DNA from: an uncultured Bacteroidales bacterium
GTDB taxonomy: Bacteria; Bacteroidota; Bacteroidia; Bacteroidales; WCHB1-69
DNA length: 64,000 nt
Direction of reading: 5' to 3'
Assembly: GCA_900317715.1 (NCBI GenBank)
Contig: ONHS01000004.1
Span: 18,481 to 82,480, forward strand
Within the stretch, counting starts at the first letter, position 1. Every line of letters starts with the position of its first letter. Positions 2,430 to 63,483 of the stretch are shown one piece after another. The notes beneath the pieces were generated by a model. It saw only the letters and a program-made list of their open reading frames with translations, did not search any database and was not told where the DNA came from. The position numbers were made by a program, and so were the translations under genes.

Positions 2430-2442
2430 TACTTTTTTAGGC

Positions 2443-2526
2443 AATAGGGAATAGGGAGTAGGCAAAAGTTATACGTCAAGCCAACAGCCAACAGCCAATA
2501 AACAAACCCAACCCAACAAACCGATA
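2443..2526. repeat. heptanucleotide array (12 units: AATAGGG x2, AGTAGGC, ..., CAGCCAA x2, TAAACAA, ACCCAAC...)
   Basis: Counted by hand with strict 7-nt register. Lies between the divergent nfeD and kinase promoters. Confidence 0.85.
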
Positions 2527-4355: not shown

Positions 4356-4363
4356 TGTGTGAC

Positions 4364-4398
4364 TTAAACCTTAAACCCTAAACCCTAAACCTTAAACC
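4364..4398. repeat. heptanucleotide array (5 units TTAAACC/CTAAACC)
   Basis: ttaaacc ttaaacc ctaaacc ctaaacc ttaaacc. Lies between the stop at 4355 and the glyQS ATG at 4403. Confidence 0.9.
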
Positions 4399-4402
4399 AA
4401 AA

Positions 4403-5917
4403 ATGGCAAACAACGAAGACCTTTTCAAACAAATCATTGCCCATGCGAAAGAGTATGGCTTCATTTTCCCATCCAGTGAGATTTATGACGGCTTGAGCGC
4501 GGTCTATGACTATGGTCAGAACGGCGTGGAGCTGAAGAACAATATCAAACAATATTGGTGGAAAGCGATGGTGCAGTACCACGAGAACATCGTCGGTTTG
4601 GACAGCGCCATCTTCATGCACCCCACCATTTGGAAGGCATCCGGACACGTGGATGCGTTCAACGATCCGCTTATTGACAACAAGGATTCCAAGAAGCGTT
4701 ACCGCGCGGATGTGTTGATTGAGGATCATATCCAAAAGATTGAGGATAAGATAGAAAAGGAAGTGGAGAAGGCCAAAAAGCGTTTCGAGAACTTCGACGA
4801 GGCCCTCTACCGCCAAACCAATGGCCGTGTGCTGCAATATCAACAGCAGGTCGATGACATCCGCCATCGTTTTGCGGAGCTGATGAACAACAACGACCTC
4901 GTGGGTCTGAAAGCCTTGATTGAGGAATTGGGCATCGCTTGTCCGATTTCCGGCACGCGCAACTGGACCGACGTGCGTCAGTTCAACCTGATGTTTGCCA
5001 CGAAGTTAGGTTCTGTGGCCGATGGCGCGGACACCATTTACCTCCGTCCCGAGACGGCACAAGGTATCTTCGTGAACTTCCTCAATATTTACAAAACTGG
5101 TCGCATGAAACTGCCGTTCGGTATCGCGCAAATCGGTAAAGCCTTCAGAAATGAGATTGTGGCCCGTCAGTTCATCTTCCGTATGCGCGAGTTCGAGCAG
5201 ATGGAGATGCAATTTTTCGTGAAACCCGGTGAGGAACTCAAGTGGTTCGATTACTGGAAACAGACCCGTCTGCAGTGGCACACGGACCTGGGTATCGCTC
5301 CCGAGAATTATCGTTTCCACGATCACGAGAAGTTGGCGCACTACGCAAATGCCGCCACTGACATCGAGTTCAAGTTCCCGTTTGGTTTCAAAGAGTTGGA
5401 GGGCATTCACTCTCGCACGAACTTCGACCTGTCGCAGCACGAGAAGTACTCCGGCAAGAAACTGCGCTATTTCGATCCCGAAGTCAACGAGAACTACGTT
5501 CCTTACGTCATTGAGACCTCCATTGGAGTCGATCGTATGTTCCTCGCGGTGTTCAGCCACGCATACACGGAAGAGACTTTGGAAGACGGCTCTACCCGCA
5601 CGGTGCTGCGCTTGCCTGCAAAATTGGCGCCTTACAAAGTCGCGGTACTGCCGTTGGTGAAGAAAGACGGTCTGCCGGAAATCGGTCAGGAGGTCTTCGA
5701 CATGTTGAAGAAGGATTTCATGGTGCAGTACGAAGACAAGGATGCCATCGGTCGTCGTTACCGTCGTCAGGATGCCATCGGCACGCCCTTCTGCGTTACC
5801 ATCGACAACCAAACCAAGGAGGATCAGACGGTTACGGTTCGCGAACGCGACACGATGGCGCAATATCGTCTGCCCATCGCCGACCTCACGGTGGAATTGT
5901 TGAAGAAATTACGTTAA
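4403..5917 (+). CDS. glyQS: glycine--tRNA ligase (homodimeric class II type)
   Basis: 504 aa. The N-terminus FKQIIAHAKEYGFIFPSSEIYDGLSAVYDYGQNGVELKNNIK and the motifs RPETAQGIF and FRNE are characteristic of GlyQS. Confidence 0.95.
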   Translation: MANNEDLFKQIIAHAKEYGFIFPSSEIYDGLSAVYDYGQNGVELKNNIKQYWWKAMVQYHENIVGLDSAIFMHPTIWKASGHVDAFNDPLIDNKDSKKRYRADVLIEDHIQKIEDKIEKEVEKAKKRFENFDEALYRQTNGRVLQYQQQVDDIRHRFAELMNNNDLVGLKALIEELGIACPISGTRNWTDVRQFNLMFATKLGSVADGADTIYLRPETAQGIFVNFLNIYKTGRMKLPFGIAQIGKAFRNEIVARQFIFRMREFEQMEMQFFVKPGEELKWFDYWKQTRLQWHTDLGIAPENYRFHDHEKLAHYANAATDIEFKFPFGFKELEGIHSRTNFDLSQHEKYSGKKLRYFDPEVNENYVPYVIETSIGVDRMFLAVFSHAYTEETLEDGSTRTVLRLPAKLAPYKVAVLPLVKKDGLPEIGQEVFDMLKKDFMVQYEDKDAIGRRYRRQDAIGTPFCVTIDNQTKEDQTVTVRERDTMAQYRLPIADLTVELLKKLR

Positions 5918-7524: not shown

Positions 7525-8124
7525 ATGAAGCGTCTGTTTGACATATTATCCTCGCTCATCGTGCTGATTATAGGCTTGCCGTTCGGCTTGCTGATTGCGT
7601 TGTGCATTTTGGTGGATTCACGCGGCAAGGTGATCTACAAGCAGAGTAGAGTAGGGCGGAATAATGTTGATTTCCAACTCTATAAGTTTCGCACGATGCG
7701 TACAGATGCGGATAAAGGCAGTCAAATCACGATTGGTGCGCACGATGCTCGCATCACCCATATCGGCGCGTTTTTGAGAAAGTATAAAATCGACGAGTTT
7801 CCGCAGTTCCTGAACATCCTCAAAGGGGAAATGAGTGTTGTGGGACCGCGTCCCGAAGTGCGCAAATACGTGGATATGTACACGCCCGAGCAGATGCGCG
7901 TGTTGAGTGTGCGCCCCGGCCTCACCGACTACGCCTCCATCCGCTACGTGAACGAAAACGAGCTCCTGGCCAAATCTGACAATCCAGAACAGACTTACAT
8001 CCAAGAAATTATGCCCGATAAACTAAAGTTGAACTTGAAGTACGTAGAGGAGCAATCCCTTGGGGTGGACCTGAAGATTATGTGGCAGACCCTGCTGGCG
8101 ATTGTGAAGAAAGATGACGTATGA
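7525..8124 (+). CDS. undecaprenyl-phosphate sugar phosphotransferase (bacterial sugar transferase family, WbaP/EpsL-like)
   Basis: 199 aa. One N-terminal TM helix, then YKFRTM, DEFPQFLNILKGEMSVVGPRP and PGLTDYA motifs. Confidence 0.9.
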   Translation: MKRLFDILSSLIVLIIGLPFGLLIALCILVDSRGKVIYKQSRVGRNNVDFQLYKFRTMRTDADKGSQITIGAHDARITHIGAFLRKYKIDEFPQFLNILKGEMSVVGPRPEVRKYVDMYTPEQMRVLSVRPGLTDYASIRYVNENELLAKSDNPEQTYIQEIMPDKLKLNLKYVEEQSLGVDLKIMWQTLLAIVKKDDV

Positions 8125-8295
8125 CGTATGACGTGAGACGTATGAAGAATGACGAATTAAGAATTAAGAATGACGAATTAAGAATTAAGTATTAAGAATG
8201 ATATGAATAGCCAACAGCTAATAGCCAATAGCCAATAGCTAACAGCCAATAGCCAAAGATTCCCTAAACCTTAAACCATAACCCCTAAACCCTAA
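8114..8295. repeat. heptanucleotide array, 26 consecutive in-phase units (ATGACGT, ATTAAGA, CAATAGC/TAACAGC, CCCTAAA families)
   Basis: Every unit boundary was verified by coordinate. The register is never broken across four motif families. It starts inside the last codons of the sugar transferase and ends 5 nt before ATG 8301. Confidence 0.95.
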
Positions 8296-8300
8296 CCGAT

Positions 8301-9890
8301 ATGTACACAAACGAACAAGGACTTTACGTGGCGCATTGCGAAGAGGGTGCGCTTTCCATTCAAGCTAAGATGGCCAACCGGCACGGTTTGATTGCCGGTG
8401 CGACAGGTACGGGTAAGACCGTCAGTTTGCAAGTGCTGGCCGAAACATTCTCACAAATTGGTGTGCCTTGCTTCATGGCCGACATGAAAGGTGACCTTTC
8501 CGGTATCAGTCAAAAGGGCCAGATGAGCGGTTTTATTGAGAAGCGTCTTCCCGAATTCGGTCTCGAAAGTCCTGAGTTTCAGGCTTGCCCGGTGCGCTTT
8601 TACGATGTCTTTGGCGAACAGGGCCATCCGATTCGCGCCACCATCTCACAGATGGGACCGCAATTGCTGTCGCGACTGCTTGGCCTTAACGAAACGCAGG
8701 ACGGCGTGCTCAACATCGTCTTCCGCATCGCCGACGAGCGTGGGCTGATGATCATCGACCTCAAGGATTTGCGGGCCATGCTGGAGTATGTCTCCAAACA
8801 TGCCAAAGAATATACGACGAAGTACGGCAATGTCTCTTCAGCCTCTATCGGCGCCATCCAACGCGCGCTGTTGCAGTTGGAAGCGCAAGGGGCGGACAAA
8901 TTCCTCGGAGAGCCGAGCTTTGACATCTATGACCTGATCCAGACCGAAAATGGCAAGGGCGTGATGAGCGTTTTGGCCGCTGACAAGCTGATGATGCAGC
9001 CGAAACTCTATAGTACTTTCCTGCTGTGGTTGCTTTCCGAACTCTACACCACGCTTCCTGAAGTCGGCGATTTGGACCAGCCGAAGCTCGTCTTCTTTTT
9101 CGACGAGGCGCACACCTTGTTTGAAGATACCTCTAAAGCCCTGATTGACAAGATAGAACAGGTAATCCGTCTGATTCGAAGCAAGGGCGTGGGTATCTAT
9201 TTCATCACCCAATATCCGACTGATATTCCGGACAACATCCTTGGACAGCTCGGTAACCGCATTCAACACGCTTTGCGTGCCTATACGCCTAAGGATCAGA
9301 AAGCGGTGCGCACAGCAGCCGACACCTTCCGTGCCAATCCGGCGTTCAAAACCGACGAGGCCATCATGAACTTGGAAACCGGCGAAGCTTTGGTTAGCTT
9401 TTTGGACGAGAAGGGAGCGCCGGGCATCGTGCAACGCGCGAAAGTCCTCTTCCCACTGTCGCAAATCGGTGCTATCACCGAGGGACAGCGGATGGACATT
9501 ATCAAGCAGAGCCGCGTCTATGGCAAATACGACACGCCTGTGGATAACGAAAGTGCTTTTGAAATGCTGATTAAAGAGGCGGAAGAGGCTTTGGCTGCAC
9601 AAGAAGAGGAAAAAGCAGCCATCGAAGAGGCCAAGCAGGAGAAGAAAGAAGAGAAGAAAGGGACGAAGAAACAAGGCGTTCTCGGCAAGGTCCTCAAAGC
9701 GATCATCACCGCCATTACGGCCACCATCGCCTCCGCAGTGGGCACCGCCGTCAGCGACAAAGTGACCGGCAAGAAGACAAAGTCCAAAACCTCCACCAAG
9801 GAAAAAGTGATCAAAAACACCACCTCGGCGGCCACCAGAACGATTACGAGAGAGATTTCGAGGGATATTCTGGGGAACATATTAAAATAG
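8301..9890 (+). CDS. HerA-like ATPase, DUF853 (YjgR-like) family
   Basis: 529 aa. Walker A (GATGTGKT), Walker B-like (LVFFFDEAH), YjgR-like N-terminus. Lys/Glu-rich linker and a hydrophobic, Lys-rich C-terminal tail. Confidence 0.8.
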
Positions 9891-9893
9891 TGA

Positions 9894-9968
9894 GTAGTTA
9901 GCAGTTAGAAGTTAGCAGTTAAGCTCCGATGCCGAATCACTACTAACTACTAACTGCTACCTGCTAAC
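9894..9968. repeat. inverted heptamer arms (GCAGTTA-type x4, 19-nt spacer, TGCTAAC/TACTAAC-type x4)
   Basis: Left arm 9894-9921, right arm 9941-9968. They can pair over about 25 bp with 3 mismatches. Confidence 0.85.
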
Positions 9969-9989
9969 TCAACATAGCTATTTCAAAAA

Positions 9990-11091: not shown

Positions 11092-11119
11092 CCCCACACA
11101 AGCGAAGCGCAGTGTGGGG
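11092..11119. repeat. REP-like hairpin CCCCACAC-N12-GTGTGGGG, copy 1
   Basis: 8-bp perfect stem. The loop AAGCGAAGCGCA contains a GCG-AAG-CGC mini-hairpin. Confidence 0.8.
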
Positions 11120-11129
11120 ATGATGAGAA

Positions 11130-11156
11130 CCCCACAAGGCGAAGCGCAGTGTGGGG
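11130..11156. repeat. REP-like hairpin, copy 2 (tandem)
   Basis: CCCCACA aggcgaagcgcag TGTGGGG. Nearly identical to copy 1 and lies 10 nt downstream of it. Confidence 0.8.
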
Positions 11157-11177
11157 AAACAACAAAACCACAAACCA

Positions 11178-15288: not shown

Positions 15289-15314
15289 CTACCGAGCTTT
15301 CGCCCCTAACGGGG
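15289..15314. repeat. 26-nt element CTACCRAGCTTT..CCCCTRACGGGG, copy 1
   Basis: ctaccgagctttcgcccctaacgggg, containing the hairpin CCCC-TAAC-GGGG. Confidence 0.7.
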
Positions 15315-15341
15315 CTTGGAGAAACGGGCCTTGTCACCGTT

Positions 15342-15366
15342 CTACCAAGCTTTGACCCCTGACGGG
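15342..15366. repeat. 26-nt element, copy 2 (direct)
   Basis: ctaccaagctttgacccctgacggg. Confidence 0.7.
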
Positions 15367-15402
15367 ACATCCCACTTACGCGAAAAATTTCCGATTCCCC
15401 AT

Positions 15403-15451
15403 TAACTGCTAACTACTAACTGCTAACTAATCACTGTTCCCTGTTCCCTGA
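15403..15451. repeat. heptanucleotide array (TAACTGC, TAACTAC, TAACTGC, TAACTAA, TCACTGT, TCCCTGT, TCCCTGA)
   Basis: 7 in-phase units upstream of the propeller gene. Confidence 0.9.
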
Positions 15452-15459
15452 AAAATTTG

Positions 15460-26651: not shown

Positions 26652-26747
26652 GTTTTTGTCGGCTCGTCAGAGGTTCATTAGGCCTACTCTTTTTGCGGTT
26701 TTCGGCACCCCCGCTTTTCTGCTGAAATTTTATAAAGAATTAAACGG

Positions 26748-28070: not shown

Positions 28071-29504
28071 TTAAAAGCCGATGCGTGTTGCACCGGGAGG
28101 GTGATTTAACAGCCACCAGAAATCCAACCACTGAACGATTTCGTTCAATGCCAATGGGTCGATAGTGGTCTCAATTTTTCCGTATTCCTCCACGCTGCCC
28201 GTCGTGCAAGGCTGAAGCAGGTGGTTGTCCCCTTTTAGTATTGTAAAGGTGTTCAGATGGTAATGGTACTTGTCTTTCAGGTACTTGCGCATGTTCTTTT
28301 GTGCTGAAATCGCTTCCACTTGCAGGTCTTTTTCGCCGGAAATGGCCAAGACGGGCGTTTTTACCTTCTTGAGGTAGGGAATGGGGTTGATATGGAACAG
28401 CGTGAAATACCATGGCGAACTGAACGTTTGCAGGAGCGTGATTTTCCCTTCGGGAGTGAAATTGTAGTTGATTTTCTCTTCTTCTGATAATTGTGATGCG
28501 ATTTTGTCCCAATATTGCTCCAATTTGGCCATACATTGGTTTTTGTCTTTGCTTTTCTTGATGATTTGATAGATATCCTTGTTTATTTTGGTGGAATATT
28601 CTATTTGGCTGTCGGTGAGTTTGTTAGAGGCTTTTGCCAATGCGATATTTTGATAAAGCAGGATTTCGTCGAAGGGTTGCGCGACTCCGCCGAGATGTAT
28701 GGTGAATTGAACTCTGGAATCTTCTGCCGCCACCATGAAGGCCACGAGGCTGCCTTCGCTGTGTCCTAAGAGGCCCGTTTTAACATATTTTAAATCAGGT
28801 CGGAGAGAGAGGGAGTCGAGGATGAGTTTCACCGCATCCGCAAAATCGTAGGTGGTGGATTTGCGGAAAACTGCCGAGGGGAGGTCGTCGTAGCGGAAGG
28901 TGGCATAGCCGGCCTTCGTCAAGGTGTCAGCGATGACGGCGAAGGGTTTGTGCCCGCAGATACTCTCGTCACGGTCCTGCCAGCCGGAACCGCTGATGAA
29001 GACGACCAATGCTTTCGGGGTAGAGTCGGGAAGGGTGAGTGTGCCCAGAATCAGCGGATATTTGCCAGCCCGGTTCTTGAACGTAATATCCTCAGTATGA
29101 TACGGATAGGGTGGAGTGGGGGTCTGTGGTCGGCGGAAGACCTTGCGCGTGGCCCCGCGTGCGAGCGTGCACGGAAGGTGAATCTTGTGCTGCACGCATT
29201 CGCCCTGGAAAGTCGCCGTCACCGCGTCGTATTTCCCAGAAAAGCTTAGACCGATGTTGCTCACCCGAAACGACAGTGTGGAATCCTGAAAACGAATGTC
29301 CGAGGCCTGCGCCCCGACGTAATACTGGTCGGGACTGTCCATCTCAACATACAGCGTGTCGTTGCGGTATTCAACTTGCACGCCAATCGTCAGCGAGTCC
29401 TTCTTGGAAATGGCGATTTTCCCCTCCCAATACCCGGCAATCTCCTGCGCGGAAACCGCCGTCGCCGCAAACACTATAATGGTGTATATCAATACTCGTT
29501 TCAT
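28071..29504 (-). CDS. alpha/beta-hydrolase (secreted, S9/S33-like)
   Basis: 477 aa. Signal peptide and nucleophile elbow (LLGHSEGSLVA). The C-terminal half has an alpha/beta-hydrolase layout. Confidence 0.75.
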   Translation of the reverse strand: MKRVLIYTIIVFAATAVSAQEIAGYWEGKIAISKKDSLTIGVQVEYRNDTLYVEMDSPDQYYVGAQASDIRFQDSTLSFRVSNIGLSFSGKYDAVTATFQGECVQHKIHLPCTLARGATRKVFRRPQTPTPPYPYHTEDITFKNRAGKYPLILGTLTLPDSTPKALVVFISGSGWQDRDESICGHKPFAVIADTLTKAGYATFRYDDLPSAVFRKSTTYDFADAVKLILDSLSLRPDLKYVKTGLLGHSEGSLVAFMVAAEDSRVQFTIHLGGVAQPFDEILLYQNIALAKASNKLTDSQIEYSTKINKDIYQIIKKSKDKNQCMAKLEQYWDKIASQLSEEEKINYNFTPEGKITLLQTFSSPWYFTLFHINPIPYLKKVKTPVLAISGEKDLQVEAISAQKNMRKYLKDKYHYHLNTFTILKGDNHLLQPCTTGSVEEYGKIETTIDPLALNEIVQWLDFWWLLNHPPGATRIGF

Positions 29505-29507
29505 TTT

Positions 29508-29553
29508 AATTCATAATTCATAATTCATAATTCATAATTCATAATGCATAATT
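29508..29553. repeat. heptanucleotide array (AATTCAT x5, AATGCAT)
   Basis: Spans the 20-nt gap between the NUDIX stop and the hydrolase start and extends into the NUDIX 3' end. Confidence 0.9.
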
Positions 29554-30064
29554 GGTCGTTCCACAATCCCTTAAGCGACGGATACGAATCCTGCATACGG
29601 CCAGACACCTCCTTGCGCGGCACCCATACCGCTTGTGCGATGTCCTCTTCGGTTTGCGGGGTCAACGTCTGTTGCGGGGCGTGCATCTCGTACCAGTGGG
29701 TGACTTTCAGGATGTCCGTATCACGCAGGGTGTAGGTGTGATACGTGTTTGGCAACGGTTGATGGAGTTCGATGTTATGCAGTCCGGTCTCCTCTTCCAC
29801 CTCGCGCACGGCAGCCTCCTCGAAGGATTCACCCTCCTCAACTTTGCCTTTGGGGAAGTCCCAATAACCGAGACGGAAGATCATCAGAATCTCGTCGTTT
29901 TCGTTGTGCACGATGCCGCCTGCGGCGTGGATCAGCTTGTAATCTTTGGAAAACTGCTGCCACTCCTCTTTGTCTTGGATGCTGACAGGCAGGTTGTTAC
30001 GAAAGACTGTCAGCGGAAACGCCGGCAGGAAGGTCGCTTGTTCTTTATTGTCTGAATGGTTCAT
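29525..30064 (-). CDS. NUDIX hydrolase
   Basis: Nudix box (GKVEEGESFEEAAVREVEEETGL). The last six codons (IMNYEL*) are encoded by the TTCATAA heptamer array. Confidence 0.9.
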   Translation of the reverse strand: MNHSDNKEQATFLPAFPLTVFRNNLPVSIQDKEEWQQFSKDYKLIHAAGGIVHNENDEILMIFRLGYWDFPKGKVEEGESFEEAAVREVEEETGLHNIELHQPLPNTYHTYTLRDTDILKVTHWYEMHAPQQTLTPQTEEDIAQAVWVPRKEVSGRMQDSYPSLKGLWNDQLCIMNYEL

Positions 30065-30154: not shown

Positions 30155-32782
30155 ATGTGTAAAAAATCATTACCACAGTTGTTCTTCAACTTCTTGATAT
30201 GCTTTTTGTTGGCTTCTACGACCTTCGCGCAAACCGACTACTGGAGTGCGGTGTATCTGGATTGTCAAAACCGTCCCGGGGTGTCGCAAAATATATACGA
30301 GAAGATTTCGAATTATAGCATCATGTCCGACGTCCACAGTCGCGATATGGCGCAATATCTCACCTTTTTGTACGCCTACATGCCGCAGAGCGACCTCGCT
30401 GATTATGATTTAAAGTTCTTCGAGGATCAGGTGAAAGTGGCGTTGGAGGCGCGGGAGACTTTCTCTTGGGGCAAAACCATTCCCGACGACATCTTCCGCC
30501 ATTTCGTGGTCGTCTATCGCGTGAACAACGAGAATCTGGACACCGCGCGGTCGTATATCTTTCACCAGCTGAAAGACCGCATCAAGAATATGAGCATGTA
30601 CGATGCCGCGTTGGAGGTGAACCATTGGTGCCACGAATACGTTGACTATCAGCCTGCTGATGTGCGTACATCGGCGCCGTTGGCCACGTTGAAGACTTCG
30701 CACGGGCGTTGCGGCGAGGAGAGCACCCTCACGGTGACGGCGTTGCGCGCTGTGGGCATCCCAGCCCGTCAGTGCTACACCCCGCGCTGGGCGCACTGCG
30801 ACGATAACCACGCATGGGTGGAGGTCTGGGTCGATGGCAAGTGGTGGTTCCTCGGTGCCTGCGAGCCCGATCCCGACCTCAATATGGGCTGGTTTGCTTA
30901 TCCCTCCACGCGCACGATGATGGTACACACCAACGTCTTCGGCCGCTACGAGGGTCCCGAAGAGGTCAACAAGAAGACGCGGTACTATTCCTGCATCAAT
31001 GTATTGTCCAATTACGCTGATACGGTACATCTTACCATTACGGTGGTCGATGAGCAGCACCAGCCCGTCAAGGATGCTTTGGTGCGTTTCAAACTATATA
31101 ACTATGCCGAATACTACACGTTGGCCGCCAAGTTGACCGACGAGAATGGTCAGGCTTCGCTCGTCACGGGCAAGGGCGATCTGTTAGTGTGGGTTAGCAA
31201 GGATGGTATGTATGGTTATGATATAATTGATGGTCGCACCCCAAAAGGGTGTACTATAATGTTGTTCCCAAACTATATTACAGGAACACCTCTCATTCAC
31301 ATGAATGCAGAGTATTATGAGGATTTCACCATTGTGCCGCCCGTGGGCAATCCTGACATTCCCGCACCGGATCCCGTCCGTCAGGCGCGTTGCGAGCAGC
31401 GCAAGCAGTATGAGGACTCTTTGCGCGAGGCCTACCGTGCCACGTTCCCCACGGAAGCGTGGGTGAAAGCGAACCTGAAAAGCGAGTACTTCACCGACGA
31501 GGAACTCTACGACATCGTGCGCCGCAGTGAGGGCAACTATCTTGAAATCATCCTATTTCTGCAAAAGTATGACAAGAAGGAGGATGGACTTTATCTGAAA
31601 GAATTTATCAACGCATTGTCGGATAAGGATTTGCGAGATACGAAGTGGCAAACCTTGGAGCGACAGCTCACCTACTACCACGAGGGTGACTATCCGTTAG
31701 ATGTATATTTCAAAGGCATTTTGCCGGCACGAATTTCCAATGAACTGATTCGTGGTTGGCGGGGTGTAATGAGTCGCGGCTTTCATTTGTTTGATGAGGA
31801 CCGTTCCATAAAAACAATCTATGATTTCGTCAAGAAAACCATTGTGGTGGACAATGAGTGCAATTACTATAATTGTCCCATAAGTCCGATAGGCGTTATA
31901 CGTTTCAATCGGGCAGACGCCCACTCCCGCGATATTTTCTTCGTAGCGCTTTGCCGTGCTTTGAACAAACCCTGTTATTTAGACAATGCCTCCAACGAAA
32001 TATATGCGTGGGAGAACGGCAAATGGAATTTGGTGACCTTCGAAGAAAAGCCCGTTGAGGAGTACAAAACGCTTATCCTAAATAATCCCAACAAGATGGG
32101 GTATTACACGCAATACACACTGCAACGTTTTGAGAACGGGGAATTTGTGAGCTTCGATTTCGAGAACGACCCGCGTGTGGAGACCAACCCCATCGTGCTC
32201 TCCGTGCCTGCGGGTTACTATTGTCTCTCCCTGGGCGAGCGCCAACCAGACGGCAGTGTTTTCTCGCAAATGCAGTTCTTCAACGTAACGAAGGATACCA
32301 CCGTGCGTGAGATCAGCAGGGAGGTGAATCAAGATGTTGTCGTTTTTGCGAATGTACGTGAATCCGCCGGAACCATCAACATGAAGAAGACGAAAGTCGG
32401 AAATGTTTCTTTGGCTAATATTCTGAAGAAGAGCGGTAAAGAGCATCTTATACTATGTCTAGGGAAGCCTGGTACCGAACCTGTCAACCACCTGATGAAA
32501 GAGATGGCAGCCAAGCAAGAGGGTTATGAAACATGGAATGGCCCGATGTTTTTCGTTAAGAAAGAGGGACAGTGGAAAAGTGAAGCCAAACAGCCGAAAA
32601 ATCTGAATGTGGTTGAGGAGGGCTATGATGAACTCGTCGCCATTTTTAAGAAAGCGTTGAATGGCGAACTGTCCGAATGGAGCCCGATGTGCTTTGTCAT
32701 CGACAAGAATGGCCATATCCTTTACTTCTCCGAAGGCTACAACATCGGGGTGGGGGACAGGATGCTGGAAATCGTGAAATAG
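30155..32782 (+). CDS. transglutaminase-like domain protein (secreted, multi-domain)
   Basis: Signal peptide from ATG 30155 (MCKKSLPQLFFNFLICFLLASTTFAQ). Cys-His-Asp transglutaminase core (HGRCGEESTL...DNHAWVEVWVDGKWWFLGACEPD). The -7 box at 30126-30133 excludes the ORF-track start at 30056. Confidence 0.85.
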   Translation: MCKKSLPQLFFNFLICFLLASTTFAQTDYWSAVYLDCQNRPGVSQNIYEKISNYSIMSDVHSRDMAQYLTFLYAYMPQSDLADYDLKFFEDQVKVALEARETFSWGKTIPDDIFRHFVVVYRVNNENLDTARSYIFHQLKDRIKNMSMYDAALEVNHWCHEYVDYQPADVRTSAPLATLKTSHGRCGEESTLTVTALRAVGIPARQCYTPRWAHCDDNHAWVEVWVDGKWWFLGACEPDPDLNMGWFAYPSTRTMMVHTNVFGRYEGPEEVNKKTRYYSCINVLSNYADTVHLTITVVDEQHQPVKDALVRFKLYNYAEYYTLAAKLTDENGQASLVTGKGDLLVWVSKDGMYGYDIIDGRTPKGCTIMLFPNYITGTPLIHMNAEYYEDFTIVPPVGNPDIPAPDPVRQARCEQRKQYEDSLREAYRATFPTEAWVKANLKSEYFTDEELYDIVRRSEGNYLEIILFLQKYDKKEDGLYLKEFINALSDKDLRDTKWQTLERQLTYYHEGDYPLDVYFKGILPARISNELIRGWRGVMSRGFHLFDEDRSIKTIYDFVKKTIVVDNECNYYNCPISPIGVIRFNRADAHSRDIFFVALCRALNKPCYLDNASNEIYAWENGKWNLVTFEEKPVEEYKTLILNNPNKMGYYTQYTLQRFENGEFVSFDFENDPRVETNPIVLSVPAGYYCLSLGERQPDGSVFSQMQFFNVTKDTTVREISREVNQDVVVFANVRESAGTINMKKTKVGNVSLANILKKSGKEHLILCLGKPGTEPVNHLMKEMAAKQEGYETWNGPMFFVKKEGQWKSEAKQPKNLNVVEEGYDELVAIFKKALNGELSEWSPMCFVIDKNGHILYFSEGYNIGVGDRMLEIVK

Positions 32783-32941
32783 TTAGCAGTTAGCAGTTAG
32801 TAGTTAGCAGTTATGGCCAACAGCAAACCGTCAACAGCCAAAAGCTAAAAGCCAACAGCTAATAGCTAACGGCCAATAGCCAAAGTTCAAAGTTCAAGGT
32901 TCAAGGTTCAAAGTTCAAGGTTCAAAGTTCTACCATCTCCC
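32781..32941. repeat. heptanucleotide array, 23 in-phase units (AGTTAGC x4, then GCCAACA/GCTAATA family x10, then TTCAAAG/TTCAAGG x6)
   Basis: 161 nt = 23 x 7, verified unit by unit. It runs from within the stop codon at 32780-32782 to the base before ATG 32942. Confidence 0.95.
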
Positions 32942-33382
32942 ATGCTCGCAAAATTAGGATTATTCGGTCTGTTCATAGGGTGTATGCTCTCTGCCACGGT
33001 AATTCCGTTTTCTTCGGAGGCATTGCTGGCGGGAGCGTTGCTGCTCGACTATCCCACGTGGATTGTTATCCTCGTGGCATCGTTGGGCAATACGGCGGGC
33101 GGAATGATCAGCTTCGCCATGGGCTGGTTCTGCAAATGGTCGTGGATAGAGAAATACCTGAAAGTCAAGGAGGAATCCTTGGAAAAGGCACGACTGAAGG
33201 TGGAAAAATACGGCGTGCTGGCGGCGCTGCTCACCTGGCTGCCCGTCGTCGGCGATGTAATCGCCATCGCCATGGGACTCATGCGCATCCGCCCCTTCTG
33301 GACTTCCGTGCTGATGTTTGTAGGAAAAGCCGCAAGGTATATCGTGGTAGCGGGAGTGATGGGGATGGCGGTTAGCTTTTAG
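32942..33382 (+). CDS. YqaA/DedA-related small membrane protein
   Basis: 146 aa, four TM helices. The patterns VIPFSSEALL and LTWLPVVGDVIAIAMG are typical of the YqaA family. Confidence 0.75.
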   Translation: MLAKLGLFGLFIGCMLSATVIPFSSEALLAGALLLDYPTWIVILVASLGNTAGGMISFAMGWFCKWSWIEKYLKVKEESLEKARLKVEKYGVLAALLTWLPVVGDVIAIAMGLMRIRPFWTSVLMFVGKAARYIVVAGVMGMAVSF

Positions 33383-33459
33383 CAGTTAGCAGTTAGAAGT
33401 TAGTAGTTAGCAGTTAATGGCCAACAGCTAACAGCCAACAGCCAATAGCTAATAATTAA
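33383..33459. repeat. heptanucleotide array, 11 units (CAGTTAG family x5, then CAGCCAA/TAGCTAA family x5...)
   Basis: Begins immediately after the stop at 33380-33382. The first 45 nt or so are nearly identical to 32781-32824. Confidence 0.9.
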
Positions 33460-37988: not shown

Positions 37989-38099
37989 TATTCCTAGGGC
38001 TCGCTATCGCTCACCCTAGGCTGACACGTGGTCGGGCTTTCAGCCCTTTTTGGAAAATGTTTTTAATGTATTTTTTGTTTAACGTATGTACTACCACGT

Positions 38100-38127
38100 T
38101 AACTGCTAACTACTAACTGCTCACTCC
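38100..38127. repeat. heptanucleotide array (TAACTGC, TAACTAC, TAACTGC, TCACTCC)
   Basis: On the minus strand it reads CAGTTAG-type units directly after the stop of the 38121-39659 gene. Confidence 0.8.
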
Positions 38128-39659
38128 TCGATTGCGTATTTCGTCATATAGACCTCGCCGCCTCTGATGCCGGAGGCGTAGAAGTTGTCGCCGTCGGTGA
38201 AATCCACATAGCGGAGCAGCTGCTTGGTCTCAGGGAATACGCGCTGAGTGAGTTTCTGGTCGGGGGTGAGGCGCATCAGCACGCTTTTCCAGTTGTTGGT
38301 GATACCGAAACCGGCGAAAGTGCAGACCGCATCCTTTCCGGGGTAGGGGATGTTCTTGGTGTCGTCGTTGAAGAGGAAGTACATATCGTCCCCATGGGCG
38401 AAGGCGGTGTAGGAGACGCAGACGGGCCGCCAGTCGTCGTCAGGGAAGGTGCCCTTGGACGACATCTGTTGCTTCTCCACCATGGTGAAGTTGGACGTGC
38501 CGTCGGTCTTGAGGGTGGAGACCAGTATGTTTTTGGTGAGCATCTGGTAGGTGTAGCTGTGCATGTTGCCGTCATAAATCTCCTTGATGAAGCGGTGTTC
38601 GCCGCAAAGCACCAGATTGCCGTTTGCCAACTCGAAGATGTCGCCCGCGCTGATGGAGTACTGCTGGTTGCCGAGTACGGAGGAGAAACGGGCCCACGCC
38701 GTCTTCTCCACGTAGTCGCTGGCGAAGGGGAAGTTTTTCAGGTCAGTGATGTTCTCCGACTTAGTGTCGAACTTGTAAAAGTAGTAGCCGCTCGTCTGAA
38801 TGGCGGTGTTGGTCATGGATTCTGTGTAGTAGCCCGCAACGGCGATGTTGCCGTCCTTGAGCACCTTGGCGGTGAAATTCTGCGGGGTGCCGAAGCTCAC
38901 TTCCTCCGTGTAGGTTTCGGTGCCGTCTTCGGTGGTCTTGGTCATCATAAGGTTGACATTGGATATGTTCTTGCCGCTCACCTGGCAGGTGTAGGCCGGC
39001 AGGTAGAGGGTACCGTTGTTGTCCATCGTGAGGTTGCCCAACGAGAAGCTCTTTCCTCCGAATTCTGGGGTGACGGCCCCGTTCCACACGACCTCGCCTT
39101 GGTTGTTGATTACCAATGCGGAAAGGCTCTCTAACTGGCTGTCTTTTCCGGTGACCATCACTAATACCGCCAGCAGCTTGCCGTCCGGAGATTTGGCGGT
39201 CTTGAACTCCGGCCAGTATTTGGCGTTGGTCGGAACGGTAACCGTAGTGGCATTGTCCAAAGTCACCTGCTTGGCGTTTCTGTCAATATTGGCGATGGTG
39301 AAGATGGCTTGGTCACCCTTCTTGGACAGGCTCTGGTACAATGCGATGACTCCGTCCTCGGAAAGGATGGCATCCAGCATCGTGTGGGTGTTGGGTGTGG
39401 TGACGGGAATATCCGTTTTGGCCATCGTGTTCTTGTCGATGAAGAAAACATGCTCGGTCCAGGTTTTCGGTTTGAAAGAGTCTGAATGACGGGGCGACAG
39501 GTAGTAGTAGAGGGTCTCTTCATCCTGTCCGATGGATGTTCCGATGATAGTGGAACGTCTGATCCAACAATTGGAGAAAGGTTCGCAAAGCGTTACGCTT
39601 TGTGCCATCATGCTGATCGACAGCGCGATAAAAACGGTTAAAAAGGTTAATTTTTTCAT
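38121..39659 (-). CDS. hypothetical secreted protein (beta-rich, no family recognised)
   Basis: 512 aa. Signal peptide (LSISMMAQ). Coding-like composition throughout, with its own -7 box and terminator. Confidence 0.6.
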   Translation of the reverse strand: MKKLTFLTVFIALSISMMAQSVTLCEPFSNCWIRRSTIIGTSIGQDEETLYYYLSPRHSDSFKPKTWTEHVFFIDKNTMAKTDIPVTTPNTHTMLDAILSEDGVIALYQSLSKKGDQAIFTIANIDRNAKQVTLDNATTVTVPTNAKYWPEFKTAKSPDGKLLAVLVMVTGKDSQLESLSALVINNQGEVVWNGAVTPEFGGKSFSLGNLTMDNNGTLYLPAYTCQVSGKNISNVNLMMTKTTEDGTETYTEEVSFGTPQNFTAKVLKDGNIAVAGYYTESMTNTAIQTSGYYFYKFDTKSENITDLKNFPFASDYVEKTAWARFSSVLGNQQYSISAGDIFELANGNLVLCGEHRFIKEIYDGNMHSYTYQMLTKNILVSTLKTDGTSNFTMVEKQQMSSKGTFPDDDWRPVCVSYTAFAHGDDMYFLFNDDTKNIPYPGKDAVCTFAGFGITNNWKSVLMRLTPDQKLTQRVFPETKQLLRYVDFTDGDNFYASGIRGGEVYMTKYAIEE

Positions 39660-39934: not shown

Positions 39935-41638
39935 ATGGCATTTATTAAAACTGACAACTTAAAAGGAGACATATTTGGCGGCATTACCGCGGGAATCGTG
40001 GCCTTGCCGCTGGCTTTAGCATTCGGTATTCAGGCGTTTGGAGGCATCGACGATCCTGCGGCCAGCTCCATGGGCGCACTCGCGGGCCTCGTGGGCGCAA
40101 CCTTTTTGGGCTTTTTCGCCTCTCTCTTCGGCGGCACCCACTCGCAAATCAGCGGACCTACGGGTCCCATGACCGTCATCACCGCATCGTTGCTCAGCGG
40201 TGTGTGGGCGGCGCAACACTCCATGAGCGCGGTGCTCATCAGCATGTCGCTCGCCGGCCTCTTCTGCGGTCTCTTCCAGATTCTCTTCGGAATCCTGAAA
40301 ATCGGCAAATACGTACGATACATCCCTTATCCCGTGCTCTCCGGCTTCATGAGCGGTATCGGTGTCATCATCATTATCCAACAGTTGTATCCCCTAATTG
40401 GTTGTAAATCACCAGTTTTGGTGGTTGATATGATTACCCAATTGCCAGAGCGTATTGCCGACGGCATTTCTATCACCGCATTGTTGCTGGGTTTGGGCAC
40501 GATTGCCATTATCTACCTTTTCCCTCTGATTACCAAGAAGATACCTGCTACTTTGGTGGCCCTCTTGGTAATGACCATCATCTCCCTCTTCCTCAATATG
40601 GATGAAAAACTGCTCATCGGCCAAATTCCTTCTGGATTCCCGATGCCTTTCTTCGCGAAAGAGGGTCTTAACTTAGGCGAAATTGACTGGGGTGTGGTAC
40701 TGAAAGCCTCTGTGATTCCGGGGCTTACGCTTGCCGGTTTGGGCAGCATCGACACGTTGCTTACCTCTGTGGTGGCCGACAATATCACCAAGACGCAGCA
40801 TAACAGCAATCGCGAGCTGATAGGGCAGGGTATAGGCAATATGGTGAGCGGTCTGTTCTGCGGTATCAGCGGCGCAGGCGCCACCATGCGTACGGTTGTG
40901 AATGTGAAGAGCGGCGGTCGCACCCAAATCAGCGGTATGACCCATTCTCTGCTGTTGTTGGCCGTGTTGCTCGGTTTGGGCAGCCTTGTGAAATACGTTC
41001 CGCTGTCCGTTTTGGCTGGCATCCTGATCACCGTCGGTTGGGGAATCATCGATTTCAAAGGATTCAAGGATCTTCTCAAGATTCCGCGCGCCGATGCAGT
41101 CGTCCTCGTCATCGTGTTCTTGCTCACCGTTTTCGTGGATTTGCTCACGGCGGTCGGTATCGGTATGGTGATTGCTTGCGTGCTCTTCATGAAGCGCGCC
41201 AGCGACCTTGTGGAAGGCGGTTACAGCTCCTCCGAGATGACCAATTTCGACAAGGAGAGCCCGTGGCAGGATGAAGGCGGCATGCCGGATAAAGTGCAGC
41301 ATAAGATTTACATCCAACGTTTGAACGGCCCCATCTTCTTCGGCACCATCACCAAGTTCCAGCATGTGATGAACGACGTGCCCGAGGATGCCAAAGTCGT
41401 CATTATCCGTATGCGCCTGGTGAGCTTCATGGACCAATCCGGATTGTACGCCATGGAGACCGCCATCAAGGAGCTACAGGCCCGCGGCGTGCTGGTGCTG
41501 ATGACCATCATCCAACCGCAGCCCATGTACATGCTCAAGACCATGAACGTCATCCCGCTGATCGTCCCCGAAGAGCACACCTTCGCCACATTTGAAGACT
41601 GCACCGACTATCTGAAAGAGAGGTTTGAGAATTCATAA
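39935..41638 (+). CDS. SulP-family inorganic anion transporter with C-terminal STAS domain
   Basis: 567 aa. The N-terminus DIFGGITAGIVALPLALAFG and polytopic core are followed by a STAS-like tail (IYIQRLNGPIFFGT...VVIIRMRLVSFMDQSGL). Confidence 0.9.
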   Translation: MAFIKTDNLKGDIFGGITAGIVALPLALAFGIQAFGGIDDPAASSMGALAGLVGATFLGFFASLFGGTHSQISGPTGPMTVITASLLSGVWAAQHSMSAVLISMSLAGLFCGLFQILFGILKIGKYVRYIPYPVLSGFMSGIGVIIIIQQLYPLIGCKSPVLVVDMITQLPERIADGISITALLLGLGTIAIIYLFPLITKKIPATLVALLVMTIISLFLNMDEKLLIGQIPSGFPMPFFAKEGLNLGEIDWGVVLKASVIPGLTLAGLGSIDTLLTSVVADNITKTQHNSNRELIGQGIGNMVSGLFCGISGAGATMRTVVNVKSGGRTQISGMTHSLLLLAVLLGLGSLVKYVPLSVLAGILITVGWGIIDFKGFKDLLKIPRADAVVLVIVFLLTVFVDLLTAVGIGMVIACVLFMKRASDLVEGGYSSSEMTNFDKESPWQDEGGMPDKVQHKIYIQRLNGPIFFGTITKFQHVMNDVPEDAKVVIIRMRLVSFMDQSGLYAMETAIKELQARGVLVLMTIIQPQPMYMLKTMNVIPLIVPEEHTFATFEDCTDYLKERFENS

Positions 41639-41658
41639 TTCATAATTCATAATTCATA
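41631..41658. repeat. heptanucleotide array (ATTCATA x4)
   Basis: Contains the SulP stop codon (TAA 41636-41638). Confidence 0.85.
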
Positions 41659-41712
41659 ATGGGGTGTTTAAACTTCTTAAGTCGTGGGGAGTCTAAACAT
41701 ATTATTAAGCAG

Positions 41713-41738
41713 CCCCGTTAGGGGCAAGAGCTTGGTAG
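41713..41738. repeat. 26-nt element, copy 3 (inverted)
   Basis: The reverse complement reads ctaccaagctcttgcccctaacgggg. Confidence 0.7.
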
Positions 41739-50381: not shown

Positions 50382-50416
50382 CAACTGCTAACTACTAACT
50401 GCTAACTTCTAACTGA
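50382..50416. repeat. heptanucleotide array (CAACTGC, TAACTAC, TAACTGC, TAACTTC, TAACTGA)
   Basis: Encodes the last codons (..VRS*) and the 3' flank of the minus-strand patB-like gene. Confidence 0.85.
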
Positions 50417-51517: not shown

Positions 51518-51550
51518 GCAGCGGGGATGGTGTTGAAATCGTAGTTCATA

Positions 51551-51596
51551 ATGATGAATGATGAATGATGAATGAATGATGAATTATGAATGATTA
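51551..51596. repeat. heptanucleotide array (ATGATGA x3, 4-nt phase slip, ATGATGA, ATTATGA, ATGATTA)
   Basis: Left flank of the four-helix-bundle gene. It is the inverted complement of the array at 52053-52094. Confidence 0.9.
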
Positions 51597-51660: not shown

Positions 51661-52603
<943 letters not shown>

Positions 52604-60967: not shown

Positions 60968-60981
60968 ATTTTAATTTTTTT

Positions 60982-61065
60982 GGGAGTAGGGAATAGGGAG
61001 TAGGCTTTAGACCACCTGAACCATAAACCATAAACCTTAAACTCTATACCATAAACTAAATAGTG
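60982..61065. repeat. heptanucleotide array, 12 units (GGGAGTA/GGGAATA x3, ..., TAAACCA/TAAACCT/TAAACTC family)
   Basis: Fills the spacer between the ACP stop (61056-61058) and the start of the GNAT-like gene (60967). Confidence 0.9.
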
Positions 61066-63032: not shown

Positions 63033-63350
63033 ATGGAACTTCAAAACATCCAAGAATTCGAGCTTTACGCCCTGTTGTATGTGGCGGCGCTGGATATGAA
63101 AACCAGTAAGGAAGAACAAAAGTTGATTAACGCCAAGATGGCGGGCGAATCATTTGAGCATGTGAAGGACATGTTCGAGCAAGACAATGATGCCCAGCGA
63201 GTGCAAACGATTACGCAGGCGGCTGCAAAGTATCTCAAGACCGACGAACAAAGAGCAGCGTTTATGGACGAGCTCAAAAAGATGGCCGCAGCCGACAGCA
63301 CCACTCCCTTTGAGGCCGTCGCCCTTTCCATGTTGGAGAATCTTCTTTAA
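63033..63350 (+). CDS. hypothetical small helical protein
   Basis: 105 aa, all-helical and acidic, with its own -7 box 25 nt upstream. No family recognised. Confidence 0.5.
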   Translation: MELQNIQEFELYALLYVAALDMKTSKEEQKLINAKMAGESFEHVKDMFEQDNDAQRVQTITQAAAKYLKTDEQRAAFMDELKKMAAADSTTPFEAVALSMLENLL

Positions 63351-63483
63351 TTCATAATTCATAATGCATAATGCATAATTTAGGCCAACAGCTAACAGCT
63401 AACAGCTAAAAGCTAACAGCCAATAGCCAATAGCTAACAGCCAAAAGCCAATAACAAACAGACAATAATTAAATTAACGAAAT
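63351..63483. repeat. heptanucleotide array, 19 units (TTCATAA x2, TGCATAA x2, then CAACAGC/TAACAGC/CAATAGC family x10, A-rich tail)
   Basis: Exactly 133 nt = 19 x 7 from the base after stop 63348-63350 to the base before the lpdA ATG at 63484. Confidence 0.95.

Follow-up and report, generated by a model that had tools for sequence, protein, structure and literature searches.

A composite heptanucleotide repeat array between two genes of an uncultured rumen relative of Prevotella

The target spacer and its flanking genes

The 64,000-nt stretch considered here (the window; positions 18,481 to 82,480 of contig ONHS01000004.1, assembly GCA_900317715.1) comes from an uncultured Bacteroidales bacterium and carries a run of tandem heptanucleotides, the target of this analysis, which fills the 176-nt spacer between a gene for a bacterial sugar transferase and one for a HerA-like ATPase (Table 1). 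By protein identity, the host is placed as an uncultured rumen relative of Prevotella/Xylanibacter: its HerA-like protein shares 93% identity with proteins of rumen Bacteroidales metagenome-assembled genomes (MAGs) and ~81% with that of Xylanibacter ruminicola. Read directly, 8114-8295 is made up of 26 successive 7-mers. This count was first given in an initial annotation, made from the letters alone, and is borne out by Tandem Repeats Finder (TRF), which resolves the region into four abutting period-7 sub-arrays (A to D), each with 0% indels and with 21-nt super-repeats that are 93-100% identical.

Sub-array A reaches into the upstream gene, since the first two ATGACGT units contain the last codons of the sugar transferase together with its TGA stop (8122-8124). 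Sub-array B is an in-register derivative of A, as the register analysis described below indicates. Sub-array C is unrelated to B in any register, and its family, AACAGCC, is found also at 2479, 32816, 33420, and 63384. The array also determines how the sugar transferase ends. In the window, the protein terminates with ..KKDDV* (8104-8124), its stop lying within an ATGACGT unit, while in a 93%-identical relative (L001:5890-5945) it ends ..IKNEECVVVET*, having read through AAGAATG units. Array turnover thus rewrites the C-terminus of this protein.

A motif scan of spacer 8125-8300 found no Bacteroidota -7 motif, TAnnTTTG, and the spacer has neither a match to a σ70-type promoter nor a terminator-like hairpin. 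Non-syntenic orthologs of the HerA-like gene, in contrast, have TAnnTTTG at 25-40 nt before the start codon. For these reasons the target spacer is most likely intercistronic, and the HerA-like gene is probably co-transcribed with the sugar transferase gene. The other large array spacers likewise contain no TAnnTTTG, no σ70-type promoter, and no terminator match, from which we infer that the arrays are transcribed within mRNAs.

Period-7 arrays in the window

A period scan of the window (periods 1-24, 28-nt windows, self-match of at least 85%) gave 137 positive windows at period 7, 56 at period 14, and 69 at period 21. No window was positive at any other period of 1-24, and 20 block shuffles of the window contained no positive window. 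The comparison of period-7 power with shuffled controls that had been proposed at the outset therefore gives a strong signal in the window and none in block shuffles. With a more sensitive period-7 scan, 528 windows were positive, as against 4.45 in shuffles, and exactly 15 arrays totaling 1,122 nt were delimited. All 15 arrays (about 1.1 kb) that the initial annotation had listed were recovered in this way, each at its listed place.

Of the intergenic DNA of the window, 13% consists of arrays, which touch 15 of the 47 spacers; co-directional, convergent, and divergent ones are all represented. Most array bases (989 of 1,122) fall outside genes, and the remainder overlap gene ends. Five spacers are filled nearly wholly by array: 8125-8300, 32783-32941, 4356-4402, 29505-29524, and 52060-52097. 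The earlier statement that some arrays fill a spacer almost base for base thus holds for 32783-32941 and four more, but not for 63351-63483, which is ~80% repeat; the length of the latter, described as exactly 19 x 7 nt from stop to start, is coincidental, given that the same spacer measures 105, 119, or 126 nt in other strains. Several units are reused at different sites of the window (AGTTAGC at 6, AACAGCC at 5, AATTCAT at 5, and CCCTAAA at 4). An Rfam search of the window returned no match within the arrays. The genes adjoining them are, by Pfam assignment, unrelated housekeeping genes; they encode a class II tRNA synthetase, asparaginase, RecR, a SulP transporter, a VTT/DedA-domain protein, the sugar transferase, and the HerA-like ATPase, together with an acyl-carrier-like protein for which no Pfam family is on record.

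An assembly artefact was considered as the source of these arrays and rejected. Identical or allelic arrays are present in many independent metagenome assemblies, and similar arrays are found in a cultured isolate, Prevotella sp. MA2016 (L015). With their head-to-tail repeats of an exact 7-nt period, far above chance, and their non-coding location, in which genes are touched only at their ends, the arrays have the attributes of the class of intergenic heptanucleotide simple sequence repeats (SSRs).

Strain-level copy-number variation

The same loci were recovered from independent metagenome assemblies via contigs that encode exactly the same flanking protein. All of the strain data come from short-read assemblies, and each sub-array is shorter than one read; the window itself is at least 99.9% identical to ENA ERZ1049613 scaffold_16. 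Three loci, one of them the target, differ in length between assemblies, and the differences are always multiples of 7 nt. Across 7 assemblies with 99.4-100% identity in the HerA gene, the target array measures 166, 166, 173, 187, 187, 187, and 215 nt, corresponding to 6 alleles. The differences consist of whole ATTAAGA/ATGACGA or CAATAGC/TAATAGC units, apart from a single substitution within a unit (ATTAAGT/ATTAAGA), and exactly one 21-nt block is missing in two assemblies with a 100% identical 1,590-nt HerA gene. The variation is unevenly distributed. The blocks at the stop and start codons (sub-arrays A and D) are invariant across the 7 assemblies, and the middle is variable, sub-array B being hypervariable with unit indels of 7-28 nt. 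In the L001 ortholog, the array corresponding to D is one 7-nt indel apart.

Similar behavior is seen at two other loci. Spacer 63351-63483, with flanks at least 99.6% identical, has lengths of 105, 119, 119, 119, 126, and 133 nt in 6 assemblies (5 alleles), and its indels are in register. The spacer at 60979-61046 was compared in 10 assemblies with a flank identity of 93-99.4%. Its lengths are 81, 88, 95, 102 (three times), and 116 (four times) nt, its alleles number 8, and the variation resides wholly in the number and order of TTTAAGG/TTTATGG units. This block ranges from 2 to 7 units, and the start-side CCTACTC/CCTATTC block is invariant. In sister species (93-94% protein identity), orthologous arrays differ by indels of exactly 7 and 14 nt, and some of these species have the same spacer filled with different unit families. 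In the few assemblies compared, four arrays were invariant, as was the hairpin pair at 9886-9970 in 7 assemblies.

Whole-unit copy-number change between related genomes is a further attribute of the heptanucleotide SSR class. The initial annotation had suggested a search for unit-number polymorphism in steps of 7 and had listed slippage-prone elements among its possibilities; such polymorphism is present at three loci, including the target. As judged from these alignments, the arrays are hypermutable by whole-unit steps, as expected of slipped-strand mispairing or unequal recombination, and they change much more quickly than the flanking genes accumulate base substitutions.

Register and origin of the unit families

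Composite arrays, in which one unit family gives way to another, had been taken as a sign of a dedicated spacer architecture on the grounds that slippage would give homogeneous arrays. The relation between neighboring families was assessed with adjacent pairs of homogeneous sub-arrays taken from the window, from Prevotella loci, and from cross-phylum loci. In 174 of 237 pairs the best alignment is at shift 0, where chance would give 1 in 7, and in 146 pairs the units differ by one substitution. Most family changes are therefore mutated units that were re-amplified in place. The expectation of homogeneous arrays is contradicted by these counts, and the pattern is one of point mutation plus re-amplification, with strain changes that are whole-unit indels, rather than of a dedicated architecture.

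Within the target, ATGACGT and ATTAAGA are joined in register via the intermediates ATGACGA and ATGAAGA, and to this extent the earlier statement that the register never slips over four family changes is correct. It does not extend to the next two transitions. ATTAAGA to CAATAGC has 5 in-register mismatches out of 7, and CAATAGC to CCCTAAA has 7 out of 7. Because other shifts fit better than the in-register alignment in both cases, register between these unrelated families has no meaning. The target is best described, on this alignment, as three independent abutting arrays: ATGACGT to ATTAAGA, CAATAGC, and CCCTAAA. In two loci of relatives (L087:1000-1200 and L086:1640-1800), arrays with a period of 6 (GTCTAA) or a mixed period of 6 and 7 (GTCAAA/GTCAAAA/GTTCAAG) lie beside normal heptamer arrays. 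The 7-nt rule is thus strong, not absolute.

Relatives and spread across phyla

A sample of 970 kb of loci from 80 related rumen Prevotella species was searched for runs of at least 3 exact copies. Period 7 accounts for 36 runs and period 4 for 13, with every other period at 4 or fewer. Array density lies between 0 and 21 nt per kb across the 80 species, and 194 exact runs in these relatives use 139 different canonical units. Within the clade, it is the period rather than the sequence that is conserved.

Exact three-unit AGTTAGC, AACAGCC, and CCCTAAA were then used to scan 185,579 species genomes. Among the matches listed, arrays of these units occur in Bacteroidota, cyanobacteria, Planctomycetota, Chloroflexota, Acidobacteriota, Pseudomonadota, Bacillota, Spirochaetota, Patescibacteria, and others. 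An Anaerolinea MAG (L146:2000-2250) carries the same composite, (AGTTAGC)n to (AACAGCY)n, as the window. This AGTTAGC-to-AACAGCY composite and AGTTAGC-type inverted pairs are found in Chloroflexota, Acidobacteriota, and Bacillota (L121, L129, L146, L189), and an imperfectly palindromic arrangement shared across these phyla points to convergent assembly.

Strand polarity and RNA structure

Arrays that touch a stop codon are C-poor in the mRNA sense, with 11% C versus 21% in array-free post-stop DNA; G exceeds C in 40 of them and falls below it in 13. Arrays that touch a start codon lean the opposite way in composition. The target displays both tendencies, as from stop to start the G content of sub-arrays A to D is 32, 18, 14, and 0% and the C content 12, 4, 27, and 41%. 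This is the polarity that Rehm et al. (2015) described, with a G-rich sense strand after stops and a C-rich one before starts.

The same preference is seen in the cross-phylum scans. Among the matches listed, 58 sense-oriented AGTTAGC arrays begin within 21 nt downstream of a stop codon, compared with 5 in the opposite orientation. For AACAGCC, it is the G-rich complement that is the stop-adjacent strand (22 versus 9), while TTTAGGG follows stops in 26 cases versus 6 and CCCTAAA precedes starts in 26 versus 4. Because both strands of the units contain stops, the opposite orientation serves as an internal control for this polarity. A pairing of AGTTAGC with an inverted partner was considered as the cause of its stop-side polarity and rejected, since a complementary downstream array is present in only 5 of ~100 cases.

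The sense RNA of 8151-8300 is predicted to fold weakly (minimum free energy -10.4 kcal/mol, z -1.5), and the leader of the HerA-like gene has A at -6 and at -12 to -14 relative to the start. For initiation, Bacteroidota rely on a leader of low structure and on adenines upstream (Baez 2019). The predicted near-absence of structure in the G-free, start-side RNA would fit Shine-Dalgarno-independent initiation of this kind. An unstructured, G-poor mRNA leader or trailer had been among the functions first suggested. For the start-side part, G-free and predicted to be nearly unstructured, the suggestion is apt; in the stop-side arrays it is C that is scarce.

Other arrays are arranged as inverted pairs. 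The pair at 9886-9970, directly behind the HerA stop, is predicted to form a hairpin of -32.1 kcal/mol (z -5.6), which has no U-tract and received no terminator call. The L001 ortholog has a predicted hairpin built from different units (z -4.9), so here the structure appears to be kept and the sequence not. About 10 inverted pairs were counted among 135 arrays, a number for which a reversed-sequence control is uninformative, as low-complexity units match their own reversal. The AGTTAGC-then-AACAGCY composites at 32777 and 33371 are imperfect palindromes (z -2.5 to -3.4), because GCTAACT is one base from GCTAACA.

An inverted pair is also found within a gene. In two orthologs of 8301-9890 (L048:3085-3195 and L067:6255-6365), an in-frame insertion of ~87 nt lies inside the HerA-like coding sequence. 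It is composed of inverted arrays, (CCATTGA)n, a loop, and (TCAATGG)n, with a predicted hairpin of -43.8 kcal/mol (z -7.9), and it adds ~29 residues (..FPIDHSTLTIDHS..KGNGQWSMVNGQSI..); in L048 a short AGTTC repeat flanks it. This could be an insertion like that of a miniature inverted-repeat transposable element (MITE) or a palindromic expansion in situ. Crude open reading frame (ORF) calls put 58 arrays inside ORFs. Apart from the two in-frame insertions in L048 and L067, these are most likely chance 21-nt matches or spurious antisense ORFs.

Comparison with known heptanucleotide repeats

Arrays of this kind belong to a known class of microsatellite. According to Mrázek et al. (2007), as cited by MacGregor (2015) and Rehm et al. 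(2015), heptanucleotides are the most abundant class of long SSRs in many bacteria, and in the SPADE survey (Mori et al., bioRxiv 309039) tandem heptamers are the most abundant periodic repeat in the intergenic DNA of many prokaryotes. An origin by polymerase slippage has been proposed, and an effect of the polymerase footprint on slippage is the only published idea on the period of 7. These are statements from genome surveys; the texts searched contain no description of rumen Prevotella, spacer-filling composites, or strain allelic series. A literature search for Prevotella together with heptamer repeats gave nothing relevant. The initial annotation knew of no described function for such arrays, and this agrees with the literature, in which the phenomenon itself has been described repeatedly.

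The closest parallels are the heptameric SSRs GGGAATC of Xanthomonas and GGGGAYT of Nostoc PCC 7120 (Rehm et al. 2015, PMC4692102). Like the arrays of the window, these are intergenic tandem 7-nt repeats, mostly located between co-directional genes; they are mostly transcribed and lie near genes of all functional classes, and a regulatory role was looked for without success. Their G-rich strand is the sense strand within 50 bp or less after a stop, often overlapping it, and their C-rich strand is found just upstream of ORFs. The mRNA-sense polarity rule is therefore not new. Hairpin-capable inverted pairs and a length and sequence that vary between related genomes are also common to both. There are, however, several differences. 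The target array has no G-run, and therefore not the four or more runs of at least 3 G of a G-quadruplex, so that G-quadruplexes cannot be the rationale; in the window, GGG is found only in TAGGGAA (2438-2462) and GGGAGTA (60982-61004), at 3-4 copies each. Many families are present in one genome and are concatenated into fillings of whole spacers, and the host is a member of the Bacteroidota that does not use Shine-Dalgarno sequences.

Direct repeats of TAACTGA in marine Beggiatoaceae, cyanobacteria, and five Bacteroidetes are mostly intergenic and lie a few nucleotides upstream of starts (forward) or overlap upstream stops (MacGregor 2015, PMC4679880). They contain stops in all three frames, and their neighboring genes show no functional pattern. 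The TAACTGC/TAACTAC arrays of the window (15403, 38100, and 50383) have 1-2 mismatches to TAACTGA and do not include the exact unit. Two TAACTNC arrays are forward, 20-40 nt upstream of starts (9939-9969 and 15403-15436), and the others are reverse, after stops. In Beggiatoaceae one heptamer is dominant, at 2-6 copies per set, whereas the window has at least 8 families in long composite arrays. Horizontal transfer was invoked by MacGregor; the wide occurrence found here argues instead for independent origin.

The dispersal of several tandem heptanucleotide families in the intergenic DNA of one genome is also a feature of the cyanobacterial short tandemly repeated repetitive (STRR) sequences of Calothrix/Anabaena. 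The window arrays are not STRR sequences sensu stricto, as their host is a member of the rumen Prevotellaceae rather than a heterocystous cyanobacterium and the unit set differs. The STRR3 unit is reportedly CAACAGT, one base from the CAACAGC of the window. For Calothrix, three heptanucleotide families have been reported (Mazel et al. 1990). Finally, the inverted pairs (9886-9970 and the AGTTAGC to GCYAACA composites) resemble repetitive extragenic palindromes (REPs) and bacterial interspersed mosaic elements (BIMEs) in forming hairpins directly after stops. They share no consensus palindrome that is conserved, however, and a U-tract does not follow them.

The arrays are thus a new member, in rumen Prevotella, of the known heptanucleotide microsatellite class. 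They are distinguished by a very high density, many families per genome, spacer-filling composites, and hypervariability at the strain level.

Origin and possible function

Considering these observations together, we think it likely that the target is a composite heptanucleotide microsatellite, formed by whole-unit slippage or recombination and in-register mutation, which is largely neutral spacer DNA subject to an orientation filter at the mRNA level. The strain and register comparisons show that whole units or blocks (7, 14, 21, or 28 nt) are gained and lost, as fits slipped-strand mispairing or unequal recombination, and that point mutation of a unit followed by in-register re-amplification gives rise to different families. 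Such arrays would be self-propagating and largely neutral, persisting only where they disrupt no promoter, terminator, or reading frame. Once they are transcribed within mRNAs, selection would filter their orientation and their edges, a filter to which the strong orientation statistics point. Next to a stop, the sense strand would be C-poor, with the unit often supplying the stop codon; next to a start, it would have little or no G and much A, so that the leader would be unstructured and suited to Shine-Dalgarno-independent initiation. In some cases two arrays in inverted orientation would fold into a hairpin behind the stop. Any function would be generic (spacing, lack of structure, 3' stem-loops), without a dedicated sequence-specific device.

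Several points weigh against this explanation. Slippage alone does not account for the favored period of 7 nt, nor does it explain why the genome reuses a small vocabulary of units, and the same units, even the AGTTAGC-AACAGCY composite (L146), recur in distant phyla. A positive function, beyond tolerance, could underlie the strong stop/start polarity and the edge blocks that do not vary. The invariant blocks are, however, the least pure repeats, and selection cannot be separated here from a lower propensity for slippage. In addition, the allelic lengths derive from short-read metagenome assemblies, and transcription of the arrays is deduced from motif scans.

One alternative is a dedicated post-transcriptional element. 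Here, the transcribed arrays would constitute a multivalent lattice for an RNA-binding factor (ribosomal protein S1, Csp-/CsrA-like proteins, or Rho) or a tunable spacer for translational coupling or the stability of the mRNA, with slippage acting as a rheostat. The rules of orientation and position at stops and starts, which hold within the clade and across phyla, are consistent with this idea, as are the variable middle between invariant blocks that touch the stop and start and the recurrent unit vocabulary in each genome. A role of this type was proposed for the TAACTGA repeats (MacGregor 2015, PMC4679880), and a Nostoc preprint reports effects of heptamers on the expression of recF and recO. 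However, 139 units in one clade fit no single sequence-specific binder, and together with the free drift of copy number among near-identical strains they are hard to square with the protein-binding lattice suggested in the initial annotation. Sister species, moreover, carry wholly different families in the same spacer, the neighboring genes have no common function, and a search for a regulatory role of comparable repeats found none (Rehm 2015, PMC4692102). We therefore regard a dedicated element as unlikely.

A broader version of this idea is that the heptamer arrays are a universal, evolvable element of untranslated regions, a C-poor trailer that would shield the message from Rho or nucleases once the ribosome has left and a G-free, structure-free landing pad for the ribosome that follows, together forming a rheostat with 7-nt steps. 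It is based on the presence of AGTTAGC/GTTRGCN after stops and of CCCTAAA and GCTAACT before starts, in the same mRNA-sense orientation, in more than 12 phyla. Although this seems rather improbable, it would mean that a widespread intercistronic rheostat exists whose length is tuned by 7-nt slippage.

Another possibility is that the arrays act as an all-frame stop pad. As 7 is coprime with 3, a stop-bearing unit closes three frames within 21 nt and could catch read-through or frameshifted ribosomes, a three-frame property that was also noted by MacGregor (2015, PMC4679880). The property is real. Nearly every unit does contain a stop, as first claimed, with 132 of 147 having one on at least one strand, although 115 ± 4 are expected from composition alone. 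Among the matches listed, 29 of 67 stop-adjacent AGTTAGC arrays use their own TAG as the stop of the gene, and in the window genes end inside arrays at 8122-8124, 32780-32782, and 41636-41638. On the sense strand, however, the excess is weak (50 of 80 versus 44 ± 3.4 expected, ~1.7 sd), and abundant sense families have no stop, such as AACAGCC and AAAGTTC/AAGGTTC, or GGCTGTT after stops in other phyla. Furthermore, arrays are also located in divergent spacers and upstream of promoters, and they exceed 180 nt where 21 nt would suffice. A stop pad is thus very unlikely as their explanation, and stop content would be at most a weak selective factor.

The hypermutable copy number among co-occurring strains might suggest phase-variation contingency loci, in which unit number switches neighboring genes, as in Haemophilus or Neisseria. 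Such loci, also on the list of the initial annotation, are highly improbable here. The arrays lie outside reading frames and not between -33 and -7 promoter elements; the large ones are in promoter-less intercistronic spacers, and others follow stops or lie upstream of a -7 element. Their neighbors are housekeeping genes (tRNA synthetase, RecR, asparaginase, acyl-carrier-like, HerA-like ATPase) with no link to surface structures, virulence, or restriction-modification, and Rehm (2015, PMC4692102) likewise reached a negative result for their heptamers. It is scarcely credible that a small MITE- or REP-like mobile element inserts the arrays into spacers, as fragments of itself or as cargo, because the observations that recall one (the 20-nt non-repeat flank common to arrays 38079 and 50361, at 84% identity; the same composite and junction on both sides of the VTT-domain gene, with different families in L087; the inverted-array insertion in L048 and L067) are accompanied by no consistent ends, target duplications, associated transposase, or Rfam match in the arrays, the units are very diverse, strain differences are internal unit indels rather than presence or absence of an element, and the shared composites are accounted for just as well by template switching or gene conversion acting locally.

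Among the periodic repeats of prokaryotic intergenic DNA, tandem heptamers are reportedly the commonest, and the rumen Prevotella lineage is an unusually rich case of them. Co-occurring, near-identical strains provide a natural allelic series for measuring slippage rates and effects on the expression of flanking genes. In practice, the composite microsatellites have consequences for annotation and assembly as well: altered protein C-termini, spurious ORFs, and hotspots of length variation in strain-level metagenome assemblies.

Other arrays and neighboring genes

Read in the direction of gene 1038-2396, on the minus strand, the unit of the array at 2436-2505 is CCCTATT; the array lies upstream of the TATCTTTG promoter element of that gene. 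In the composite at 32777-32933, the stop codon TAG overlaps the first unit; the array is identical in 5 assemblies, and its ortholog in L086 has an exact 14-nt indel in AAAGTTC.

Table 1. Repeat arrays of the window and the genes flanking the target spacer.
Feature	Coordinates	Strand	Evidence or remark
TAGGGAA array, then AGCCAAC	2436..2505	.	TRF, period scan, motif scan
CTTAAAC/CCTAAAC array filling 47-nt spacer up to ATG at 4403	4361..4403	+	TRF, period scan
Bacterial sugar transferase gene	7525..8124	+	ORF list; Pfam PF02397, E=1e-59
Sub-array A, ATGACGT x3, then GAGACGT, ATGAAGA	8114..8154	+	TRF; stop-side block
Sub-array B, ATTAAGA/ATGACGA (AAGAATT family)	8145..8199	+	TRF; 21-nt super-repeat 100% identical
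Sub-array C, CAATAGC/TAACAGC (AATAGCC; AACAGCC family)	8206..8256	+	TRF; hypervariable between strains
Sub-array D, CCCTAAA/CCTTAAA, G-free	8262..8295	+	TRF; end 5 nt before ATG at 8301
HerA-like ATPase gene	8301..9890	+	Pfam PF05872, E=1e-212
Inverted pair (AGTTAGC)x4 ... (ACTAACT/GCTAACT)x4 right after HerA stop	9886..9970	+	RNA fold
TAACTGC/TAACTAC array, then CTGTTCC, ~40 nt upstream of start at 15492	15401..15452	+	TRF, period scan
TAATTCA x6.7, covering whole 20-nt spacer and NUDIX gene 3' end	29503..29554	-	TRF, period scan
Composite AGTTAGC to AACAGCC to AAAGTTC, filling 159-nt spacer	32777..32933	+	TRF, period scan
Composite GTTAGCA to GCCAACA, after stop at 33382	33371..33455	+	upstream of TACCTTTG promoter element of next gene
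AGTTAGC/AGTTAGT (mRNA sense) at stop of gene 38121-39659	38097..38129	-	TRF, period scan
AATTCAT x4.4, overlapping stop at 41638	41624..41663	+	TRF, period scan
AGCAGTT/AGTAGTT (mRNA sense) at stop of gene 50402-51517	50382..50416	-	TRF, period scan
AATGATG array in divergent spacer	51547..51596	.	inverted partner of 52048 array
ATTCATC x6.4, filling 38-nt spacer between two convergent stop codons	52048..52100	.	TRF, period scan
Composite (mRNA sense): stop, TTTATGG/TTTAAGG, CCTACTC/CCTATTC, start of gene 59852-60967	60979..61046	-	
Composite TAATTCA/TAATGCA to AACAGCT/AATAGCC, after stop at 63350	63344..63467	+	copy number varies between strains

Several arrays share sequence with one another. 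Direct copies of the AGTTAGC-to-AACAGCC composite lie on either side of the VTT/DedA gene 32942-33382 and have the junction GCAGTTA(A)TGGCCAACAGC in common; in L087, a different composite is shared by the two spacers around this gene. These shared composites suggest local copying between neighboring spacers. Arrays 38079-38128 and 50361-50410, at the 3' ends of different minus-strand genes, have a common 20-nt non-repeat flank, TTRACGKATGTACTACC, with 84% identity, which hints that array and flank were copied between loci. Gene 51625-52059 (PF05635, the 23S rRNA intervening-sequence protein family) is bracketed by the reverse-complementary arrays (AATGATG)n and (ATTCATC)n, an arrangement that resembles terminal inverted repeats.

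Other short repeats are dispersed in the window. The element AAGCTTnnGCCCCTAACGGGGC, a short palindrome rich in GC and accompanied by a conserved flank, is unrelated to the heptamers; its 3 copies (15294-15315 and 15347-15368 on the plus strand and 41712-41733 on the minus strand) all lie in spacers that also hold heptamer arrays; shuffles contained 0 matches. The motif GCGAAGCGCAGTGTGG is present twice in a 37-nt tandem repeat at 11097-11173 and once near a tRNA-Leu gene (50265-50280, minus strand). A sequence related to it is inserted in the L003 spacer upstream of the HerA ortholog, the counterpart of the target array. A coding tandem repeat of 27/57 nt (42153-42324) lies within gene 41779-42342, which encodes an HMA-domain (heavy-metal-associated) protein. 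The sole Rfam match in the window is a DUF805b RNA motif at 26681-26715 on the minus strand (37.9 bits, above the gathering score). Finally, near the 5' end of a transglutaminase-like gene, five base differences within 33 nt (30221-30253) set the window apart from four other assemblies, with which it otherwise shares 99.9% identity over 6.4 kb, a cluster that may represent a small recombination or conversion tract.

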